NCBI GenBank assembly: GCA_051647685.1
Contig: JBOFEG010000001.1
Span: 5,961-69,960, forward strand
DNA from: Chlamydiales bacterium
GTDB taxonomy: Bacteria > Chlamydiota > Chlamydiia > Chlamydiales > CALTSX01
DNA length: 64,000 nucleotides
Direction: 5' to 3'
Position numbers and translations under genes: made by a program. Under the pieces are notes generated by a model. That model was not told the origin of the DNA, did not search any database, and saw only the letters and a program-made list of their open reading frames with translations. Positions within the stretch are counted from its first letter, which is position 1. Each line of letters opens with the position of its first letter. Of the stretch, positions 9,305 to 26,870 are shown in pieces.

Positions 9305-10465
9305 TTAAAAATCAAGACGAATGTCCACTGTGAGACCCATTAAACTAAAGTCTAATCCCTGTCGTAAAAATTTAACTATGGGTGAAGTAGTCGCTCCAGC
9401 TGCTACATCAACTACGCGAACTACTTGGTTTACTCTCCACCAGTATTGTGATTCGAACCCAATTCTTACCATTAAATGGTTTTGGTCATCATTAAAATAG
9501 CACTTGCGCGCAATACCGAGCATATACTTCGCCATCGGACAAAACTTATGACAATCATTTTTTAATTTTATTCTGGATAAATTATTTGGACTATATCTTT
9601 CTGAATGACTAATTTGGAATTTTCCATAAAGCATTCCTATACCAAATTCATTATAAAGACTCACTCCTCTACCAATATACCAGTTAGCTCCAAACCCCAT
9701 AACTGGACCAAGTCCCTTGAAAGAACAACTTTCCTTGACATGCACTAAATCATCCCCAAGGCCAAATGTTGTCGCAATCGGATCTCCACCGGTATAACGA
9801 GTGCTTTGTCTCGTAGTAATCCAAGCAGCTTCAAGTGCCGTGAAATGACGAATGGCTAAACAATCACTAACAAAAAAATCTCGCGCTAAATCCCAACAGA
9901 GTGCCCGAAAGTGCAACTCACTTTGCGATTTTGCTTCAGAACAAAATAGAAATATAGCTCCATCATTGGGAATAGTTATGTTATAAGCTCCGACTAAAGG
10001 AATGACATTGTCGTTACATCCAGAGGCTACTACATTAGAGCCTGCACTAGCAAAATCACTATAGCATAAATTTGATTCCCAACCATCATGATTAATGTTA
10101 CATCCAAGCATTACTTTATAACCCCAATTCCACTTAGAATGCACATCTTTTATGTCCCCTTTAACGGGAAATTCAAGGACGGGATTTTGTTTTCCATACG
10201 CATAATCGGTGCCGCATGTACCTCCTTGCCAGTACAAGAGAGATGCACCTATATTCCAATTGTATCCACAACATTGGCCACAACTATTTAGAGTAGGACG
10301 AGCAGATGCAGTGTAAGCTCCACACGTACCGTTTGGAGTTGTTATATATATCCGATCTATTTTTTTACCTATTTCTTCCATGCGGTCATCAATGCCAGCT
10401 GCAAAGATAGTATGACTTAAGGTAGCCAAGGCCAACATGGTTATACCTTTCTTTATTATATTCAT
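9305..10465 (-). CDS. Cysteine-rich MOMP-like outer-membrane beta-barrel porin, paralog 1
   Basis: 386 aa. Signal peptide (...SHTIFAAG), conserved TTPNGTCGAYTASARPTL...CGQCCG block shared with the three paralogs downstream, alternating beta-strand pattern, and C-terminal DIRLDF (terminal Phe, the OMP sorting signal). Confidence 0.75.
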   Translation of the reverse strand: MNIIKKGITMLALATLSHTIFAAGIDDRMEEIGKKIDRIYITTPNGTCGAYTASARPTLNSCGQCCGYNWNIGASLLYWQGGTCGTDYAYGKQNPVLEFPVKGDIKDVHSKWNWGYKVMLGCNINHDGWESNLCYSDFASAGSNVVASGCNDNVIPLVGAYNITIPNDGAIFLFCSEAKSQSELHFRALCWDLARDFFVSDCLAIRHFTALEAAWITTRQSTRYTGGDPIATTFGLGDDLVHVKESCSFKGLGPVMGFGANWYIGRGVSLYNEFGIGMLYGKFQISHSERYSPNNLSRIKLKNDCHKFCPMAKYMLGIARKCYFNDDQNHLMVRIGFESQYWWRVNQVVRVVDVAAGATTSPIVKFLRQGLDFSLMGLTVDIRLDF

Positions 10466-10720
10466 TTACCACCTCAGTGTTTTTTGAAATAATTCTTTTT
10501 ATTATTAATGTATTCGTATCATTTCTATATTTTCAAATTATATGATTATAAAATATTTCAAACTTCATTTTATTGAAAAAATAGAATTGATATTCCATCT
10601 CAAAACACAGTGCAGACTTAAAGAATCTCTATAGTCAACGGCTCGATATTTTGTATTTATATCCCCTCCTTATAGTCAGCACTATGTTTTTATTATCACT
10701 TTCCTTGCAGTCCACCTAAT

Positions 10721-15100: not shown

Positions 15101-16093
15101 CTAACTCAAAGATTTGTGTTGCATAATGGTAAATTTAGCTCCTAGTAGAACTGTTTTATCGTTACAAATAATCTTTACTGGTATTTCTGATAATAATTCT
15201 GAAAATCTGCCTTTATGTGTAAATGCTTGCATGAAAGTTCCATCTTGCAACTTTTTAATAAGTCTCGGAGGAATTCCACCTCCGAGAAAAATACCTCCAT
15301 AAGATAAGTATTTTAACGCGAGATTGCCCGCTTCTGCTCCATACAAAGAGAGGAATAAATCTAAAGTTTTTACAGAAACAGGACAAATATTTTGTAATGC
15401 TGATTCTATAATCACTTGTCCAGTTTTTTGTGTTTGCAATTCAGATTGTACATCTGGATTAGGAACCTCTCCTTTCACATCAATAAAAAATTGAAATAAA
15501 TTAAGCAATCCTATTCCAGATAGTACTCTTTCATAAGAAACATGATCAAATTTTTTGAGCATATACGATAGCAAGGAAATTTCTAGATCATTTCGAGGAG
15601 AAAAATCCACGTGTCCCCCTTCACTTGGAATAGAGAGAACGGTATCATCGAGTGTAATCATTCCAACTTCTCCAAGACCAGTTCCGACAGAAATTATTGC
15701 TTGAAGCCCTTTTGTTATGACTTTTCCTGGATTGATAACTACAAAATCTTTATCGGATAATAATTGCACTCCAAAAACGCTCGCTTCTAAATCATTTAGT
15801 AAAATTACCTGAGCAAAAGAAAATCGGCTCGTAAGTTCTTTGCCATCTATATACCAAGGTAAATTTGTGGTTTTGCAGCTATTATTTTTTATAGGTCCTG
15901 CTACACCCAAACAAACCAATTGAATTATTTCAGAAATACCCATGAGAAATTGTTGTAGAACATGATAGAAACTTGAATATTCTTGGCTGTTAAAAACTTG
16001 TTCTCGCAAAATTTCGTCTGTGCCATCCCTCTTCCTATACATTAGTAAATGTGTTTTTGTGCCACCGATGTCTCCTGCTATATACATACTCAA
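15101..16093 (-). CDS. glk: Glucokinase
   Basis: 330 aa. The N-terminal IAGDIGGTKT phosphate-1 loop, GVAGPI, and EGGH are typical of Glk-type (non-ROK) bacterial glucokinases. Confidence 0.8.
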   Translation of the reverse strand: MSMYIAGDIGGTKTHLLMYRKRDGTDEILREQVFNSQEYSSFYHVLQQFLMGISEIIQLVCLGVAGPIKNNSCKTTNLPWYIDGKELTSRFSFAQVILLNDLEASVFGVQLLSDKDFVVINPGKVITKGLQAIISVGTGLGEVGMITLDDTVLSIPSEGGHVDFSPRNDLEISLLSYMLKKFDHVSYERVLSGIGLLNLFQFFIDVKGEVPNPDVQSELQTQKTGQVIIESALQNICPVSVKTLDLFLSLYGAEAGNLALKYLSYGGIFLGGGIPPRLIKKLQDGTFMQAFTHKGRFSELLSEIPVKIICNDKTVLLGAKFTIMQHKSLS

Positions 16094-16172
16094 TCCTAGT
16101 TCAAATTATATTCTAACTATTAAAATAGCCATTTTTTTGCCATTATGTGGGAAATTCATTTTAGGAGGAAGT

Positions 16173-17237
16173 ATGACAACACCACAAGATGCCGCAAAGA
16201 AAAAAGCTTTGGAACATGTTTTTGCACATTTAGAAAAACAATTTGGCGAAGGAACTATCATGACACTTGGAAAACATTCCAAGCGTAGAAAAGTAAGTAT
16301 GATCCCAACTGGCACTATTGCTTTGGATATTGCAACTGGAATTGGCGGGATTCCTCGAGGTCGAATCACAGAAATTTATGGCCCTGAAGCATCGGGAAAA
16401 ACTACACTTGCTAATCATATTACTGCAAATTGTCAAAAACAAAATGGAACAGTTGCTTACATCGATGCAGAACATGCTTTGGATCCCGCTTACACCGCAC
16501 GTATTGGAGTCAACTTAGAAGAGCTTATGATATCACAGCCAGATTGCGGAGAAGATGCGTTAAATATTGCAGAAATGCTTGCGAGATCTAACGCTGTAGA
16601 TTTAATTGTTGTCGACTCCGTCGCAGCACTTGTTCCGAGAACTGAACTCGAAGGAGAAATTGGCGACCCACAAGTAGGATTGCAAGCACGTATGATGTCG
16701 CAAGCACTCCGAAAATTAAACGCTACGATCTCAAAGAGCAACACGGCACTTGTGTTTATTAATCAGGTCCGAGAGAAAATTGGGATCTCTTATGGAAATC
16801 CTGAAACGACAACGGGTGGCCGAGCTCTTAAGTTTTATGCTTCGTTGCGTCTCGAAATTAGACGGATTGCTTCTATTAAATCATCGGAAGATGATATTGG
16901 AAATCGAGTAAGAGTAAAAGTTGTAAAGAATAAACTGGCCCCTCCCTTCCGAACAGCCGAATTTGATATTTTGTTCAATGAAGGAATATCTAAACTTGGT
17001 TCATTAATCGATATGGGCGTAACCCTTGGAGTGATTGAAAAGAAAGGTACTTGGTTTAGTTATAAAGAACATCGGTTTGGACAGGGAAAAGAAACTTGTC
17101 GAGAAGAGCTAAAAAAGAATCCAGTACTGGTAAAAGAAATTGAAGATAAAGTTTTTGAACTTTCTTTTGAGAAAAATCCTCTATTACTTGAAGTTGGTGG
17201 CGAATCAAAACCTTTAGCCACATCTGTTGCAGAATGA
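16173..17237 (+). CDS. recA: Recombinase RecA
   Basis: The track ORF starts at 16020 but overlaps glk. The in-frame ATG at 16173 is preceded by AGGAGG (16164-16169) and gives MTTPQDAAKKKALEHVFAHLEKQFGEGTIMTLG, the normal RecA N-terminus. Walker A GPEASGKTTLA, and the ALKFYASLRLEIRR and KVVKNKLAPPF motifs are present. Confidence 0.95.
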   Translation: MTTPQDAAKKKALEHVFAHLEKQFGEGTIMTLGKHSKRRKVSMIPTGTIALDIATGIGGIPRGRITEIYGPEASGKTTLANHITANCQKQNGTVAYIDAEHALDPAYTARIGVNLEELMISQPDCGEDALNIAEMLARSNAVDLIVVDSVAALVPRTELEGEIGDPQVGLQARMMSQALRKLNATISKSNTALVFINQVREKIGISYGNPETTTGGRALKFYASLRLEIRRIASIKSSEDDIGNRVRVKVVKNKLAPPFRTAEFDILFNEGISKLGSLIDMGVTLGVIEKKGTWFSYKEHRFGQGKETCREELKKNPVLVKEIEDKVFELSFEKNPLLLEVGGESKPLATSVAE

Positions 17238-18919: not shown

Positions 18920-19072
18920 TGTGGATCTGTTCATAAGTGCCCTTTTTCATAGACAAGGCAATTGTTCATAGACTGTTCATAACTTGGGCAAATTGTTTAA
19001 AACTATTTCTTGTATGGTACTTATGAACAAGTTATGAACAGCTGTGAACAGTCTATGAACAGGTTATGAACA
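18920..19072. repeat. Iteron-like array of the 9-mer TTATGAACA on an 11-bp register (5 direct copies facing 3 inverted copies)
   Basis: Direct copies start at 19021, 19032, 19042 (CTGTGAACA), 19053 (CTATGAACA) and 19064. Inverted copies TGTTCATA(A/G) start at 18928, 18963 and 18974. TGTGGATCT lies at 18920-18928. The whole array is non-coding. Confidence 0.8.
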
Positions 19073-19184
19073 AGTTTCCCACATAAAAAAAAATCAAAAC
19101 TTTACACTTTTGGCATAAAAATTACTGATTTTAGGTGATTATAACTTGTAATTCCTTCGATTTTTTGAATTAATAAATGATAAA

Positions 19185-19259
19185 TCTGGATGGGAGGATT
19201 CGAACCTCCGACCCCTAACACCCCATGCTAGTGCGCTAGCCATGCTGCGCCACATCCAG
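19185..19259 (-). tRNA. tRNA-Pro (anticodon GGG)
   Basis: Hand-folded cloverleaf from the reverse complement: CTGGATG-TG-GCGC-AGCATGGCTA-GCGC-A-CTAGC-ATGGGGT-GTTAG-GGGTC-GGAGG-TTCGAAT-CCTCC-CATCCAG-A. It has a 7-bp acceptor stem, a TTCGAAT T-loop, and the anticodon loop AT-GGG-GT with G37. CCA is not encoded. Confidence 0.9.
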
Positions 19260-19370
19260 AAAACATAAGAATTATACTGTGAAAAAAAGAACAAAAAATG
19301 AGAACATTTTCTAGGAAAGTTAGAAGGATAAACCAGTTTTTGTCAATCGTAAAAGGAGCCTACTTCATCT

Positions 19371-20065: not shown

Positions 20066-21297
20066 GTGAAATTTTTGAGAAATAATAAACGAACTTTGTT
20101 TGCTATTTTTCTCACATTTGCGTTAGATGCCTTAAGCGCAACCATTATTTTCCCTATACTAACCCCACTATTTTTAGACCCAGAACGCGGCTTATTTGCA
20201 GCGGGATACTCACCTTTTGCGAAAAATGTCTTTCTTGGGATCTGTTTAAGTATCTTTCCTCTAGCTCAATTGATCTTTTCTCCTATTTGCGGACAAATCG
20301 CAGATTGTATAGGTAGGAAACGGGTTTTTTTTTTACAATTTTGCTAACTGCTATTGGATATTTTCTATGTGCCATTGGCATTGGAATACGAATTTTCTCT
20401 ATCATTTTGGTCGGTCGGTTAGTTACAGGAATTGGGGCGAGTAATTTTACTGTATGCTTGGCGGCACTTGCCGATATTACTGGAGGTAGTGGCGTACGGG
20501 GTCGCTATTTAAGCATTGGGTCTATGTTTGCAGGATTGATTTTTATTTTAGGACCGTTTGTAGGGGGTAAATTTTCTGATGTAACGGAATATTCTTGGGC
20601 GTCTTTTGATCTTCCTATGTGGATAGGCGGAATTCTATCGCTTATTAACGCATTATGTATCCCTTTCTTATTTAAAGAAACTCTGCCGGTTACCAAGAAG
20701 CTTTCTTTATCTGGTTGGAAATTAGAGAATACTTTAGAGGTCTTTCGAAGAAAGAATATCTCTATAATTTACTCTATCTTATTCTTATATTTTTTTGGAT
20801 GGAATCTCATATATCAATTTACACCTGCCTATCTGCTTCAGAGATTTAATATGACAAATTCTCAAATTGGTAATTTGATATCCCTTATGGGAGTATTTTG
20901 GATTATAGGATCAGGTGTATTTTTTCAATTAGAACGAAAATTTCTCTCTACGAAAAATATTCTATTATTATCACTGACCTCAATGGGTCTATTGTCTCTA
21001 TGTGTTGGCTTTGCTAGTCATGTCTGGGACTTAGTTTTAATTGTTGGATTTACAGTGAGTTTTGCAGGTATCATTTGGCCTACTTGTATTGTAGCTATTT
21101 CTCATATTGCAGGGGAAAACATGCAGGGAAAAATGCTGGGAGTTACGCAGTCTGTGCAGTCTCTCGCAACTCTCCTCGCTCCATTGATTGGTGGGACACT
21201 TTTATTTCTCAGTCCGAGTATAAATTATCTAATTGCTGCCTTATTCTCTTTATCTGCTGTTTTTTTGGCTCTCAGAATTAAAAAAGAAGAATATTAA
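20066..21297 (+). pseudogene. MFS transporter interrupted by a frameshift in a T10 tract
   Basis: ORF 20066-20347 (93 aa, GTG start) carries TM1-2 and the MFS loop motif GQIADCIGRKRVFF. ORF 20341-21297 (318 aa, no credible start of its own) continues with TM3-12. The frames switch inside the T run 20325-20334. One extra T (T11) would read GRKRVFFFTILLTAIGYFLCAIG as one ~410-aa protein. Confidence 0.75.
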
Positions 21298-22265: not shown

Positions 22266-22469
22266 CTATCTTTCAGAGAATCTTATTCCTGGTCTTTGTG
22301 TAGGTTCCTCTTTAGGTAAGTATGAACTCATTGAACTCGACTGACTAGAAGATGGTTTTGTGGACGTTTCATTCGATTTAGGATTGCGATCAGAAGCTTC
22401 CACTGGTATAGCTAATCCAATAGTTACAACTGCGAAAGCAATATAGAGACTGGTAATAATTGATTGCAA
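22266..22469 (-). CDS. Hypothetical small membrane-anchored Ser-rich protein
   Basis: 67-aa ORF with an N-terminal hydrophobic segment (SLYIAFAVVTIGLAIPV) and a low-complexity S/T/P tail. No homology recognised, so it may not be a real gene. Confidence 0.25.
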   Translation of the reverse strand: MQSIITSLYIAFAVVTIGLAIPVEASDRNPKSNETSTKPSSSQSSSMSSYLPKEEPTQRPGIRFSER

Positions 22470-22522: not shown

Positions 22523-24109
22523 TTATTGAAAATAAAAAAAATGAGAAATTTTTTGTAACAATGCTCCTAAAGATTTTTTTTCTTTTATGGAGAGAGGAGT
22601 AGTTTGCTCATATAATTGTTCGCGTATTTTAATGAGCTGAGCATATATAGAATTATATGCATTCTTTGTTCTTTTATCGGATTGTTTGAGTGGAAATGTC
22701 TTTCGAATTCTATGAATTAATGCCTCTTTCGATTCCCCAGAGAATTGTTCTACAATTTGTTTCTTTTGTTGTAGACTTCCCTTACGACTAGCTAAGGTAT
22801 AGATGGCTTGCCTTGGAATAGAGACGATCTTTTTCTGTAAATCTGAAGAAAGGACAATATATAGTTCATAGTATTGTAGAAAATTATAGGGAGTTTGTCG
22901 ATTCCCATATACAGCTACGAGCCAAGAAGAAAAAGCCCCGTCTTTATAGGTTTTTAAGAGAATTTGCGCTTTTTTGATTCTCTCTCCATGTAGTAGTATA
23001 GATTGATTATGAATGGCTTTTAATTCGCAAGTAATCTGTGAGAGTTCCTCTAAATCCTTATCGATCTGCTGCGTTTGGGAGTCTCCGTAGTGATGCAGCA
23101 GATTTTCAATCTGGTCTTTTTCTATGTCAGTCAGTGGTATGGTTTGAAATACACCTGAAAAGCTCGATAAATCTCCGTCAACAGACTGACTTGCTAATCG
23201 AGATACTTTCGTATTACTCGATGGTTCGAGTCGACTTTGCAAGATGGCATTGATTTCAGTATTTTCGATTGAAGGTTTGTTTTTCTCTTTTTCTAATTGT
23301 TTAATACTTTTTCTAACAATAGGTAGTTTTTCAGGCATAGTACCTCCTAATTCTTCGATAGTTTTACGAACCTTTTCACCAACATCAAAATGAGTTTGAT
23401 TAGCTTTACTCTTTCCTTGGATTTTATCTCGTCGGAGTTTTTCTTCGGTTTGTGTGACTCTAAAATAATTCGCAGCAGTCTCTGTGCTTCCCATATAATC
23501 TAGTATTTCTTGCCCTTTTTGCAGTTTTGCACCTTCGCCACCATAGAGACCCTTGTATCCGTGATCTTGAAAGATAACAAAATCGAGAGGTGTATGTACT
23601 CCAGCTCGGTATGCTGTTGCAGCGAGGATTTTATTATGGCTACGAAGTTCATTTCTTAAGAAGAGACGTTTCTCATCTTCTTCTAAATCCTGGAAAGCTC
23701 TGTCATTTGCTAATTCTTGCCGACGAGTTTGTATAGCAAAATAAGTTTGTCCATTAGCAACAATCGGTTTTGATGGATCTCCATTTTGTACAATTAAATA
23801 GCAACCATAGCGTGATAGCCTTATATCGGAAAATTGTCTTTGCCCTCCTTTTCCTATTTCGATCATCTCGTGCACATCAACGAAATGATCGGCAACAATA
23901 TGGCCACTAATTTTACATGCTTCTTTAGCCTTATCAATAACGGGAAGGAAATTTCTATGTTCAAAATATTCTAAAATCTTAGATAGCTTCCGAGCACTCC
24001 AAAATTCGCAACCATTTTCTTCTTGTTTAATGGACTCAAAAGTTTGATGATGGGTTGTTTCGACGATATTTTTATTCACTGCTAAATCTCCTAACATTCT
24101 CAATATCAT
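22523..24109 (-). CDS. Fusion protein: DNA-damage-inducible protein D (DinD)-like domain plus pGP6-D/CT583-like ParA-partner domain
   Basis: Single uninterrupted frame. The ORF opens at 24250, but a start at M48 (24109) or M52 (24097) avoids overlap with parA. The segment from about 24052 to 23276 matches DinD as I recall it (FWSARKLSKILEY, KAKEACKISGH, RLSRYGCYLIVQNGDPSKP, GQTYFAIQTRRQE, DEKRLFLRNEL, FQDHGYKGLYGG, YMGSTETAANYFRVTQTEEKL, HFDVGEKVRKTIEELGGTMPEKLP). The last ~240 aa match the chlamydial plasmid protein pGP6-D (LLHGERIKKAQILL, FSSWLVAVYGNRQTPYNFLQYYELY, LQKKIVSIPRQAIYTLASRKGSLQQKKQIV). Confidence 0.8.
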   Translation of the reverse strand: MILRMLGDLAVNKNIVETTHHQTFESIKQEENGCEFWSARKLSKILEYFEHRNFLPVIDKAKEACKISGHIVADHFVDVHEMIEIGKGGQRQFSDIRLSRYGCYLIVQNGDPSKPIVANGQTYFAIQTRRQELANDRAFQDLEEDEKRLFLRNELRSHNKILAATAYRAGVHTPLDFVIFQDHGYKGLYGGEGAKLQKGQEILDYMGSTETAANYFRVTQTEEKLRRDKIQGKSKANQTHFDVGEKVRKTIEELGGTMPEKLPIVRKSIKQLEKEKNKPSIENTEINAILQSRLEPSSNTKVSRLASQSVDGDLSSFSGVFQTIPLTDIEKDQIENLLHHYGDSQTQQIDKDLEELSQITCELKAIHNQSILLHGERIKKAQILLKTYKDGAFSSWLVAVYGNRQTPYNFLQYYELYIVLSSDLQKKIVSIPRQAIYTLASRKGSLQQKKQIVEQFSGESKEALIHRIRKTFPLKQSDKRTKNAYNSIYAQLIKIREQLYEQTTPLSIKEKKSLGALLQKISHFFYFQ

Positions 24110-24140
24110 TATAAATTGAATTTCGCTGTAAAATGCAATT

Positions 24141-24929
24141 TTATTTTGAATCAATAGAAGATAAATGTACAGTCGTTTTACATTTAGAAAATAGTTCATT
24201 TGTAAGAGATTTATAGTCCTCGGCAGCTCTGCTATTTGTTGGGATATCAAATACGGGTTTTCCCTGAATCGAGGCTACGGATACGGCAATGTCACGACGA
24301 ATTTTCGTTTGTAAGATTTTATCTGGAAAAGACTTTTGAATGGAGGCGAGAAATGCTTCATTATTTTTTCCACGCACGTTCCAAAAAGAGAGAGCAACTC
24401 CTAAAATATCAAAGGGATGTCTCGTTGCAATTTGTGATAGAAAAATAGAGAGTCTGCTCAAACCTTTGATGCTATAGAATTCTGGAGTAGCACATATTAA
24501 GCAATGATTAGAGGCAATGAGAGCAGATTCCGTTAGCCAACAGAGCGAGGGAGGGGTATCGATAAGGATAAAGTCATAATTTAGTCTCTGTGTAAGCTTC
24601 TGAAGACGTTCATGAGAATATCTGTCGGATGCGAGCGTCCCAGTCACCTCTACTCTTTCTAAATAACTATCAGCTGGAATCAAATCGAGATTGGGGACAG
24701 AAGTGTGAATAATAACATCGCTTACCGTCTTTTCGTTTTGCAGAACAGGAGCTAAACTATCGTAATGATCTGGATCAAATCCGAGTCCCGTAGTGAGATT
24801 TGCTTGAGCGTCAAAATCGATAACGAGTACTTTTTGTCGATGAAATTTCGCCAGAGCTGCTCCTACATGGAGCAAAGTAGAGGTTTTGGCAGTCCCCCCT
24901 TTAAAACTACTGACTGTAATGATATGCAT
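24141..24929 (-). CDS. parA: ParA/MinD-family partition ATPase (CT582 / pGP5-D-like)
   Basis: 262 aa. Deviant Walker A in MHIITVSSFKGGTAKTST, then VIDFDAQANLT and ILIDTPPS. Lies between thrS and the pGP6-D-like gene, as in the Chlamydia thrS-CT582-CT583 arrangement I recall. Confidence 0.85.
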   Translation of the reverse strand: MHIITVSSFKGGTAKTSTLLHVGAALAKFHRQKVLVIDFDAQANLTTGLGFDPDHYDSLAPVLQNEKTVSDVIIHTSVPNLDLIPADSYLERVEVTGTLASDRYSHERLQKLTQRLNYDFILIDTPPSLCWLTESALIASNHCLICATPEFYSIKGLSRLSIFLSQIATRHPFDILGVALSFWNVRGKNNEAFLASIQKSFPDKILQTKIRRDIAVSVASIQGKPVFDIPTNSRAAEDYKSLTNELFSKCKTTVHLSSIDSK

Positions 24930-24944
24930 CTTATTCTACTCCTT

Positions 24945-26870
24945 CTATATAAAGAGAGATGTCGGCAATCGTTTTTTCCTCTCTTCTATTATTGTTTTTA
25001 TAAATGTATCGAGCTGTAGTGGCCCATGCTTCCTATTATCTCGACTACGTAGAGAGATCGATCCGCTTTCTTCTTCGGCATCCCCAATAATTATCATATA
25101 GTTAATTTGTTGCAATTGCGCATTGCGAACCTTTTTACTCACTGATTCTCCGCTATCATCAATATCCACTATAAAAGATTCTGCCTCTAATATTTTTTGG
25201 ATTTTTTTTGCATAAGTGATATGGCGATCTGCTACGGTAAGAACACGCACAGGAAGGGGGCTTAACCATAGAGGAAATTTACCAGCATAATGTTCTATAA
25301 TAATGCCAAAAAATCTCTCGATCGATCCAAAAATTGCTCTGTGAATCATAATGGGTCGTTTTTCTTTTCCATCTGTATCTCGATAGACAAGATCAAATTT
25401 TTCTGGCAATGACATATCTAATTGTATTGTTCCACATTGCCAAGAACGTTGCAAAGCATCGCGCACGTGCATATCAATTTTTGGTCCATAAAAAGCTCCA
25501 TCACCCTCTTTAATTTCAAAAGGTTTTCCCCAGTCTTGTAAGGCTTCTTTTAGGCTTGCAGTAGTCATTTCCCAAGTTTGTTCTGTGCCAATAAATTTAT
25601 CTGGCCTGGTAGAAAGTTCCAAAGAATTTTTTAATTCAAATATAGAGTATAATTCATCAGAGTATTCCAAAATATGGAAAATTTCCTGTTTGATGTCACT
25701 TGGTTTCATAAAGAGATGGGCGTCATCTTGATGAAATCTCCGTACTCGAAATAAGCCATTTAATGCACCAGATGGCTCAAGCCTATGTACACAACCAAAC
25801 TCTGCAATACGCATAGGGAGTTCTCGATGACTATGGGTTTTTTGGCGATAGTAAATCATACACCCGGGACAATTCATAGGTTTAATTGCAAAACTTCTCT
25901 CATCCACTTCGGTTATATACATGTGTTCTCGATAACAATCCCAGTGACCAGACAACTCCCATAGTTCTTTACTTAAGATTTGAGGAGTTTGGATTTCTAC
26001 ATATCCATATTTTTTATTTAGTTCTCGCAGTAGATCTATGAGATGTTGCCAAATGGTTAGACCTTTAGGATGAATAAAGGGCATCGCTGGACTCTCCTCA
26101 TGGAAAGAGAATAAGTCTAGTTGCGCGCCAATAACTCTATGATCTCGTTTTTTTGCCTCTGCTAAATAATGCAAGTATTCTTTTAATAAAAGACGATTTG
26201 GAAACGAGATGCCATAAATCCGAGTTAGCATTTCTTTACTTGAGTCTCCTTTCCAGTAAGCTCCAGATGTTTTTAATAATTTTAAAGCTTTTATTTTTCC
26301 TAGAGAAAATAAATGAGGTCCTCGGCACAGGTCAATGTATTCGCCCTGCTGATAAGTAGTAATTGTTTCTGTAGGAGAAAATGTATGAATAAGTTCGCCT
26401 TTATAAGGGTTATTTTTAAAAAGCTCTAAAGCACAATCTGTATTTTCTATAATAGATTTTGTTACCGAATAGTTTTCTTGAATAATTTTTTGCATTTCTA
26501 ATTCAATCTTTGCAAAATCCTCCTCTGAAATTTGTAGATTTGCAAAGTCATAATAGAATCCAGCTTCAATGGGTGGGCCGATGGTTGGTTTAGCATCAGG
26601 CCATAGTCGCATAACAGCTTGGGCTAGCACATGGGCTGATGTATGCCAAAATACTTCTTTTCCAATTGACGAATCAAAGTTATAAAATGTAATGTAGTCT
26701 CCATCATTCAAGATTGTAGATAAGTCGCAAAGTCTATCATTTATTTTAGCTGTAATAGCTTCACTCGGATCGCGGAGTTTAAGATGTTCGGCTAAATCTT
26801 TGGCTGAAGAGCCCTCTTCAAGCTCGATAGCTTCTTCATTGTAGAAAATTTTCATAAGGAGCGTACGCAT
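24945..26870 (-). CDS. thrS: Threonine--tRNA ligase
   Basis: 641 aa. N-terminal TGS-like domain, second additional domain with HTSAHVLAQA, class II core (FRVRRFHQDDAHLF, GTIQLD), and a C-terminal anticodon-binding domain. The start may be the second Met (MKIFYNEE, 26855). Confidence 0.95.
   Translation of the reverse strand: MRTLLMKIFYNEEAIELEEGSSAKDLAEHLKLRDPSEAITAKINDRLCDLSTILNDGDYITFYNFDSSIGKEVFWHTSAHVLAQAVMRLWPDAKPTIGPPIEAGFYYDFANLQISEEDFAKIELEMQKIIQENYSVTKSIIENTDCALELFKNNPYKGELIHTFSPTETITTYQQGEYIDLCRGPHLFSLGKIKALKLLKTSGAYWKGDSSKEMLTRIYGISFPNRLLLKEYLHYLAEAKKRDHRVIGAQLDLFSFHEESPAMPFIHPKGLTIWQHLIDLLRELNKKYGYVEIQTPQILSKELWELSGHWDCYREHMYITEVDERSFAIKPMNCPGCMIYYRQKTHSHRELPMRIAEFGCVHRLEPSGALNGLFRVRRFHQDDAHLFMKPSDIKQEIFHILEYSDELYSIFELKNSLELSTRPDKFIGTEQTWEMTTASLKEALQDWGKPFEIKEGDGAFYGPKIDMHVRDALQRSWQCGTIQLDMSLPEKFDLVYRDTDGKEKRPIMIHRAIFGSIERFFGIIIEHYAGKFPLWLSPLPVRVLTVADRHITYAKKIQKILEAESFIVDIDDSGESVSKKVRNAQLQQINYMIIIGDAEEESGSISLRSRDNRKHGPLQLDTFIKTIIEERKKRLPTSLFI

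Follow-up and report, generated by a model that had tools for sequence, protein, structure and literature searches.

The locus described here lies in a 64,000-nucleotide stretch (the window) of contig JBOFEG010000001.1, from the metagenome-assembled genome (MAG) of a Chlamydiales bacterium (GCA_051647685.1). It comprises thrS, the gene of a small ParA-type ATPase and, immediately downstream, a single open reading frame in which DinD is joined to a protein of the UPF0137 family, whose members include the chromosomal protein CT583 (Gp6D) and the plasmid protein Pgp6 (pGP6-D) of C. trachomatis. This DinD–CT583 fusion is genuine and is restricted to one small Simkaniaceae-related environmental clade of chlamydiae. 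The features on which the argument depends are the following:

24945..26870, minus strand: thrS, the conserved upstream neighbour (thrS–parA–CT583 synteny)
24141..24929, minus strand: parA, a small deviant-Walker-A ATPase (KGGTAKT; Pfam AAA_31 and CbiA), the upstream operon partner
22523..24079, minus strand: the DinD–CT583 fusion gene, 518 aa from the GTG at 24079, identical in sequence to NCBI protein P0001
23273..24064, minus strand: the DinD moiety, full length (NF008573)
23750..24028, minus strand: the Bro-N domain inside DinD (Pfam PF02498)
22547..23257, minus strand: the UPF0137/CT583/pGP6-D moiety (Pfam PF03677), in which an all-helical body follows a disordered N-terminal peptide that contains an invariant arginine
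23336..23348, minus strand: an internal AGGAGG (23343–23348) and ATG (23336–23338), which are conserved DinD codons (ELGGTM)

In the six-frame list of open reading frames, the fused frame is open without interruption over 22523..24250 on the minus strand. Its likely start is the GTG at 24079, which has the sequence AGGAG (24088–24092) 8 nt upstream, corresponds to the NCBI call of 518 aa (P0001, 100% identity), and is also the point at which the orthologues begin (MNK/VNK). Alternative in-frame ATG codons are found at 24109 (528 aa) and 24097, and domain coordinates are given below in the 528-aa numbering. A scan for promoters and terminators returned no sites above chance expectation.

Both moieties are complete from end to end, as three profile matches establish. 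The NCBIfam equivalog NF008573 ("DNA damage-inducible protein D") matches residues 16–279 (model positions 5–276 of 288; 401.3 bits, cut-off 242), the Pfam domain Bro-N matches residues 28–120 (32.6 bits, cut-off 25.6), and UPF0137 matches residues 285–521 (positions 3–237 of 237; E 5.3e-76; 256 bits, cut-off 34). In the alignment, the DinD tail (..ELGGTMPEKLP..KQLEKEKNK) leads directly into the usual CT583 N-terminus (..INAILQSRL, aligned with M-NDVNQLLKTRL), with the peptide KQLEKEKNKPSIENTEINAILQ across the junction; the CT583 half carries about 270 additional N-terminal residues, and its native N-terminus is now internal. A preliminary description of the locus, made from the sequence alone, had reported a full-length DinD joined in frame to a full-length CT583/pGP6-D-type protein, a Bro-N-like DinD moiety, and a position immediately downstream of a small ParA (KGGTAKT) and thrS. 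The profiles, the alignment, and the list of reading frames confirm each of these statements, and all of the peptide strings it quoted occur in the translation. The public name of P0001, "DNA damage-inducible protein D [Chlamydiales bacterium]", covers the whole fusion and conceals its ParA-partner domain.

An open reading frame of this kind could be produced artificially, if a missed stop, a frameshift, or a chimeric assembly joined two genes. The window is indeed a MAG contig, and no evidence was found in support of such an artefact. The same continuous frame, intact and without a stop, is present in seven independent assemblies from different samples (the window, L001, L006, and L086–L089; 77–100% identity), so that the missed stop or frameshift which the preliminary description had itself envisaged was not found. 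In addition, both Pfam domains are carried by 12 protein clusters (90% identity) that are 77–100% identical, and conservation of the junction and selection on each half point the same way. We therefore regard an artefact as extremely improbable.

Selection was assessed with Nei-Gojobori (NG86) ratios of nonsynonymous to synonymous substitution rates (dN/dS) for every pair among the seven fused genes. The values were 0.06–0.15 for the DinD half, 0.04–0.10 for the CT583 half, and 0.01–0.09 for parA, and dS exceeded 1 in the deepest fused pairs. Because dN/dS is low and the deepest dS is above 1, the fusion is old and both of its halves are under purifying selection.

The preliminary description had also considered that the fusion might be a common architecture among relatives, which is not the case. 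In a scan of GTDB species representatives, the fusion was found in only one, the uncultured Simkaniaceae MAG L006, and 68 of the 69 unfused chlamydial loci had the usual pair, with a CT583-family gene directly after parA and usually thrS before it. The exception was L046, in which no homologue of parA or thrS was detected within 2 kb upstream of the CT583-family gene (2044–2775). In the unfused loci, the CT583-family genes match over approximately 200–245 residues. A search with the C-terminal half returned 2,153 family members; all 120 of those listed carry PF03677 only and measure 240–287 aa. The fused proteins P0001–P0012 were not among the matches listed in that search, which was taken as a quirk of the tool and not as evidence. 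Similarly, when a family profile was searched against 1.84 billion cluster representatives, 336 family representatives were obtained, of which the best 150 measure 96–296 aa and include no DinD fusion. The sole long representative, P0292 (473 aa), proved to be a garbled gene call that reads through thrS, parA, and CT583, and is not a domain fusion. The statement in the preliminary description that the usual chlamydial partner has about 245–250 aa agrees with this survey of family sizes. With 518 aa, the fusion falls outside the single-domain, approximately 245-aa form by which the UPF0137/CT583 family is recognized; no paper joining DinD with Chlamydiae was found in the library of papers searched, and the fusion is a previously undescribed variant of two known families.

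CT583 counts as a signature protein of the Chlamydiales (PMC1403754). Among the plasmid ORFs, Pgp6 alone gives rise, when deleted, to transformants in which the plasmid is lost, and a conditional suicide vector relies on this dependence of the Chlamydia plasmid on Pgp6 (PMC4725004). Pgp5 and Pgp6 have been predicted to serve as ParA and ParB, Pgp6 being the presumed ParB-like partner (bioRxiv 10.1101/2024.11.14.623704). The near-universal gene order, the plasmid genetics of pgp6, and this published prediction together argue for a role of CT583 as a ParA partner. The plasmid copy of this family is needed for stable plasmid maintenance. The CT583 half of the window shares with CT583 and Pgp6 a full-length PF03677 domain, all invariant residues (41 invariant family columns are kept), and a place after a ParA homologue and thrS; it differs from these single-domain members by its approximately 270 N-terminal residues.

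Structure prediction with AlphaFold2 (AF2) gave an all-helical model of the CT583 half (predicted local distance difference test, pLDDT, 88), in which the first 45 or so residues are disordered (pLDDT 52–61). This N-terminal peptide contains a basic residue, the invariant R14, and the motif LSSFSGVF. No ParB/Srx, helix-turn-helix (HTH), or ribbon-helix-helix (RHH) domain was detected in the family by Pfam (121 members), a PDB profile search, or Foldseek against PDB, where the best match of the CT583 half had an E value of 2 and SopB and Spo0J had values of 5–7. PDB sequence searches gave no meaningful match for either half of the fusion. The only resemblance of CT583 is to uncharacterised phage proteins, namely in BFVD (Foldseek against viral models, E 8.7e-4) and in PHROGs (phrog_1733, E 1.9e-5); matches to DUF3102 were weak, and the literature on DUF3102 is uninformative. 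The sole near-match in the PDB profile search was histone H4 (E 0.06, 76 residues), which aligned with positions 141–216 of the CT583-family profile A2 (approximately 22620–22850 in the window) over roughly the entire histone fold (..mPrqavYtLasreG.. with ..itkpAirrLArrgG..). No histone fold is seen in the AF2 model, and this match was treated as due to chance.

The parA product (262 aa, SSFKGGTAKTS; AAA_31 2.8e-39, CbiA 1.4e-17) belongs by these features to the small type Ib-like ParA proteins. The pair resembles type Ib ParA/ParB-like operons, in which a downstream adaptor carries an N-terminal ParA-stimulating peptide, in its gene order, in its small deviant-Walker-A ParA, in an adaptor that has a disordered N-terminus with a conserved arginine, and possibly in the presence of iterated 11-bp sites nearby. 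However, no ParB, HTH, or RHH domain is detectable in CT583, and any centromere binding or ATPase stimulation by it is putative.

One assay has described CT583 as "possibly secreted" (PMC12671076). The internal position of its N-terminus in the fusion speaks against the need for a type III secretion signal at that end. That the N-terminus tolerates such a placement favours a role in the cytoplasm, related to DNA, over secretion by an N-terminal signal.

The part played by the DinD half can be approached through relatives in which it has been lost. In L002/L003 (two samples), an internal deletion of about 690 bp corresponds to 24104..23416 of the window; in L004, a deletion of about 800 bp has different breakpoints (24164..23361); and in L005, several frameshifts and stops have turned the DinD part into a pseudogene, all of the neighbouring genes being intact. 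Codons of the DinD tail are retained in all three loss lineages, which therefore descend from the fused state. A CT583 tree pairs L002 with the fused L089 and L005 with the fused L001 and L006 as sister groups (100% bootstrap each), and places L004 with the other fused sub-clade (73% bootstrap). In the DinD-less lineages, the CT583 part has an omega of 0.03–0.15. This comparison indicates that DinD was removed three times independently while CT583 was kept intact. As a consequence, DinD would be dispensable for the partner function and is best seen as an accessory module, not as a missing centromere binder. An apparent fourth DinD-less case, P0124 (244 aa, 5 member sequences), was rejected: its start lies in an untrimmed Nextera adapter (GTCTCGTGGGCTCGGAGATGTGTATAAGAGACAG) at positions 1–44 of the public metagenome contig L092, which the gene caller had used as a start.

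In L004, the surviving DinD codons GAA TTA GGA GGT ..ATG (ELGG.M) now form the Shine-Dalgarno sequence and start of the unfused CT583 gene, and the same ELGGTM codons provide the start in L005. In the window, these codons make up the internal AGGAGG–ATG at 23336..23348, a possible second start from which a free CT583 of 271 aa could be produced. Such a product could explain why the deletion of DinD is so easily tolerated.

The copy of the fusion in the window has two peculiarities of its own, both in the DinD half:

23522..23527, minus strand: a 21-bp in-frame deletion found in the window only (junction 23524/23525), by which DIHRRKG is gone between ..GAK and LQK..
About 23810–24034, minus strand: a mosaic (recombinant) Bro-N patch, with dS 1.5 against L086 and 0.13–0.18 in the flanks

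The missing DIHRRKG covers three positions with a conservation of 90% or more in DinD (I, H, and K), and the motif is retained in all other fused orthologues. The nearest relative, L086, is 98–99% identical in thrS, parA, CT583, and dihydrodipicolinate synthase (DHDPS), with a dS of 0.13–0.18 in parA and CT583. Nucleotide identity to L086 is 0.64–0.80 in the Bro-N patch and 0.93–1.00 downstream. In trees, the Bro-N segment of the window groups with the standalone DinD P0014, and in the remainder of DinD all fused genes form a monophyletic group; in other fused lineages, the Bro-N tree conflicts with that of the rest of DinD as well. It has to be considered that the DinD of the window is already inactive and heading for loss, so that the protein is in effect an N-terminally extended CT583. 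This would be in line with the 7-residue deletion at conserved positions, the mosaic patch, the three related lineages that have finished the loss, and P0008, which lacks 18 N-terminal residues (seen at the protein level only). However, the frame is intact, and the window copy keeps all 80 columns that are strictly invariant for DinD in an alignment of 81 sequences. Moreover, dN/dS in the Bro-N patch against L086 is 0.08; since the ratio stays at about 0.1, the patch does not reflect decay and is read as the exchange of one functional allele of the Bro-N module for another. We consider inactivity of the window DinD to be unlikely, although it deserves serious attention. Where it is kept, the DinD half appears to be still functional.

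The origin of the DinD half probably lies in the immediate neighbourhood. Its nearest standalone homologue, P0014 (72% identity), is encoded in a chlamydial genome, at a locus with the order dinD(+)–MFS(+)–DHDPS(+)–ADSL(-)–CT583(-, 247 aa)–parA(-)–thrS(-), where MFS is a major facilitator superfamily transporter and ADSL is adenylosuccinate lyase. Since related chlamydiae keep a standalone dinD in this same neighbourhood, 3–4 kb away, a resident neighbouring gene is the probable source of the fusion. L042 and L049 have more distant DinD-like genes at no more than 6 kb from the locus. In the Simkaniaceae MAG L043, an unfused CT583 gene is accompanied by a 69-aa dinD fragment (10479–10688) that abuts the 3' end of tRNA-Pro(GGG) (10412–10488), beside the uracil-DNA glycosylase gene; this site corresponds to 18.8–19.2 kb of the window and suggests an older position or an integration site of dinD in the neighbourhood. 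In the window itself, this region contains the following tRNA gene, and no second DinD remnant was found elsewhere in the window.

19184–19260, minus strand: tRNA-Pro(GGG)

On the simplest reading of these gene orders, the resident dinD would have relocated between parA and the CT583-family gene and would then have lost its stop codon, leaving parA followed by a single protein of about 58 kDa.

At a distance of 3.5 kb from the operon, the window contains an array, already mentioned in the preliminary description, that bears on the question of a centromere:

18927..19083, no strand assigned: two inverted clusters of the 9-mer TTATGAACA with 11-bp spacing

All five exact copies of TTATGAACA in the 64-kb window lie in this array, and the 9-mer is one mismatch away from the DnaA-box consensus TTATNCACA. 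The sign of the GC skew changes at about 18–20 kb, where gene orientation switches too, and the array is a probable candidate for oriC and/or a centromere-like site. In the fused clade, the array is conserved wherever the locus extends over this region (L001 13007–13151, L005 4730–4874, and L006 11045–11157); the remaining loci fetched yielded no equivalent 11-bp array.

The preliminary description had proposed that DinD supplies a centromere-binding function that the ParA system otherwise lacks. This proposal, in which DinD/Bro-N has been recruited as the centromere-binding module, for example on the TTATGAACA array, fits with the fact that Bro-N is a DNA-binding-type domain (Pfam), with the lack of a recognisable DNA-binding domain in the CT583 half, with the centromere-like layout of the array and its restriction to the fused clade among the loci fetched, and with the stable maintenance of the fusion under purifying selection. 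Nevertheless, the evidence as a whole speaks against it. The unfused ParA–CT583 pair is the norm across Chlamydiota, as the 68 of 69 loci show; three lineages have lost DinD with CT583 unaffected and still under purifying selection; and in the literature it is Pgp6 that is regarded as the presumed ParB-like partner (bioRxiv 10.1101/2024.11.14.623704). In addition, the DinD half keeps the invariant residues of standalone DinD and is not diverging, and finding the array together with the fusion counts as only one event in the phylogeny. L005 has an intact array although its DinD is a pseudogene, which argues weakly against a dependence of the array on DinD. A role of DinD as centromere-binding module is thus improbable.

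A more far-reaching idea is that the fusion acts as a "Rosetta stone": DinD, an orphan that is widely transferred, would work physically with ParA-type nucleoid machinery, and Bro-N would target the partner to the TTATGAACA array beside the probable origin. If true, this would represent a new design of centromere adaptor and provide a first way into the function of DinD as well as that of the Pgp6/CT583 family; we regard it as a speculative proposal with little likelihood of being correct.

DinD is poorly understood outside E. coli. In the AF2 model of the DinD half, pLDDT is about 80 in the Bro-N part and low elsewhere (59). The half is 60–73% identical to standalone DinD proteins from many phyla. 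Like E. coli DinD (PRK11525/NF008573), it matches the family model over its full length and above the cut-off, and has Bro-N and the conserved C-terminal motifs; it differs from the E. coli protein in that it has no stop and continues into another protein, in that it lies behind parA and is not expressed as an SOS gene, and, in the window copy, in the absence of 7 conserved residues. It also matches the candidate PDC-S13 of PADLOC over the full length (E 1.7e-107), as well as the first 268 positions of the PADLOC model "Specificity_I" (717 positions). The latter match to a type I specificity-subunit model implies that DinD–HsdS fusions exist. Moreover, dinD lies inside a type I restriction–modification (R-M) operon (hsdM–dinD–hsdS–hsdR) in two of the four non-chlamydial loci examined:

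L008 4445–11439, Burkholderiales MAG: dinD in a type I R-M operon
L009 2531–10537, Cytophagales MAG: dinD in a type I R-M operon

As in the present fusion, DinD is in these cases an N-terminal add-on or a neighbour of another DNA-handling protein. However, the partner here is partition-associated and not a restriction specificity subunit, and there are no R-M genes nearby.

According to PMC4849656, in the passage that cites Uranga et al. (2011), E. coli DinD removes RecA filaments; the E. coli protein is also known to be induced on DNA damage, under LexA. In the window, recA is located as follows, and its proximity is of note only because of this action of E. coli DinD:

16020–17237, plus strand: recA, about 5 kb from the DinD fusion, with the same arrangement in L001

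By analogy with E. coli, where DinD is an inhibitor of post-synaptic RecA filaments, the tethered DinD could target RecA control to segregating or origin-proximal DNA and thereby couple segregation to recombination or DNA damage. Such a coupling would fit the membership of the DinD half in the equivalog, the E. coli activity just mentioned, the recA gene about 5 kb away in the fused clade, and the linkage of dinD to this neighbourhood in several chlamydiae. On the other hand, DinD is dispensable in three lineages, and outside chlamydiae its occurrence in type I R-M operons and as a PADLOC defence candidate means that RecA control is perhaps not its general role. Chlamydiae are not known to have a LexA/SOS regulon, which also weighs against a link to DNA damage. 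We judge this coupling to be quite improbable.

Taken together, these data are most readily explained by a lineage-restricted fusion in which the CT583 half is the core ParA partner and DinD is a selected but optional accessory, a reading that we hold to be reasonably probable. The gene would be co-expressed with parA and give one polypeptide, in which the conserved ParA-partner activity would come from the body of CT583 together with its N-terminal peptide, which has become an inter-domain linker and presumably makes the contact with ParA. The DinD half, in which a Bro-N DNA-binding domain is joined to a helical domain, would keep a DNA- or RecA-related activity of its own and, being tethered, probably act near the ParA/nucleoid complex. 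The internal Shine-Dalgarno sequence and ATG may additionally yield free CT583.

Several points weigh against this explanation. The fusion has persisted through saturating dS (>1) without being split again, and the linkage itself could be selected, not just tolerated. The single product of about 58 kDa is a prediction from the sequence. No signature of ParB, HTH, or RHH can be detected in the CT583 family, and its role as a "partner" rests on gene order and plasmid genetics. The deletion of 7 residues in a conserved motif may mean that the DinD of the window is already impaired. Lastly, the clade-specific 11-bp array co-occurs with the fusion, and a new DNA-targeting role for Bro-N is possible. 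For the reading of DinD as an optional accessory, the natural fusion and the three natural "knock-outs" of its DinD half in sister lineages represent a ready comparative system; this system supports the optional nature of DinD and points to concrete binding experiments.

Two further features of the window lie beyond the fusion:

20066–20347 and 20341–21297, plus strand: an MFS transporter gene, present as two overlapping ORFs (93 and 318 aa)
22266–22469, minus strand: a small conserved ORF (67 aa) that lies shortly downstream of the fusion and has a hydrophobic N-terminus and then a Ser-rich tail

The MFS gene is also split in L005 (about 101 and 303 aa) and is a single intact gene of 402 aa in the outgroup L090; it may be frameshifted or split across the fused clade. 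Gene calls of 67–73 aa, with no Pfam match, occupy the same place as the small ORF in L001, L005, and L088.

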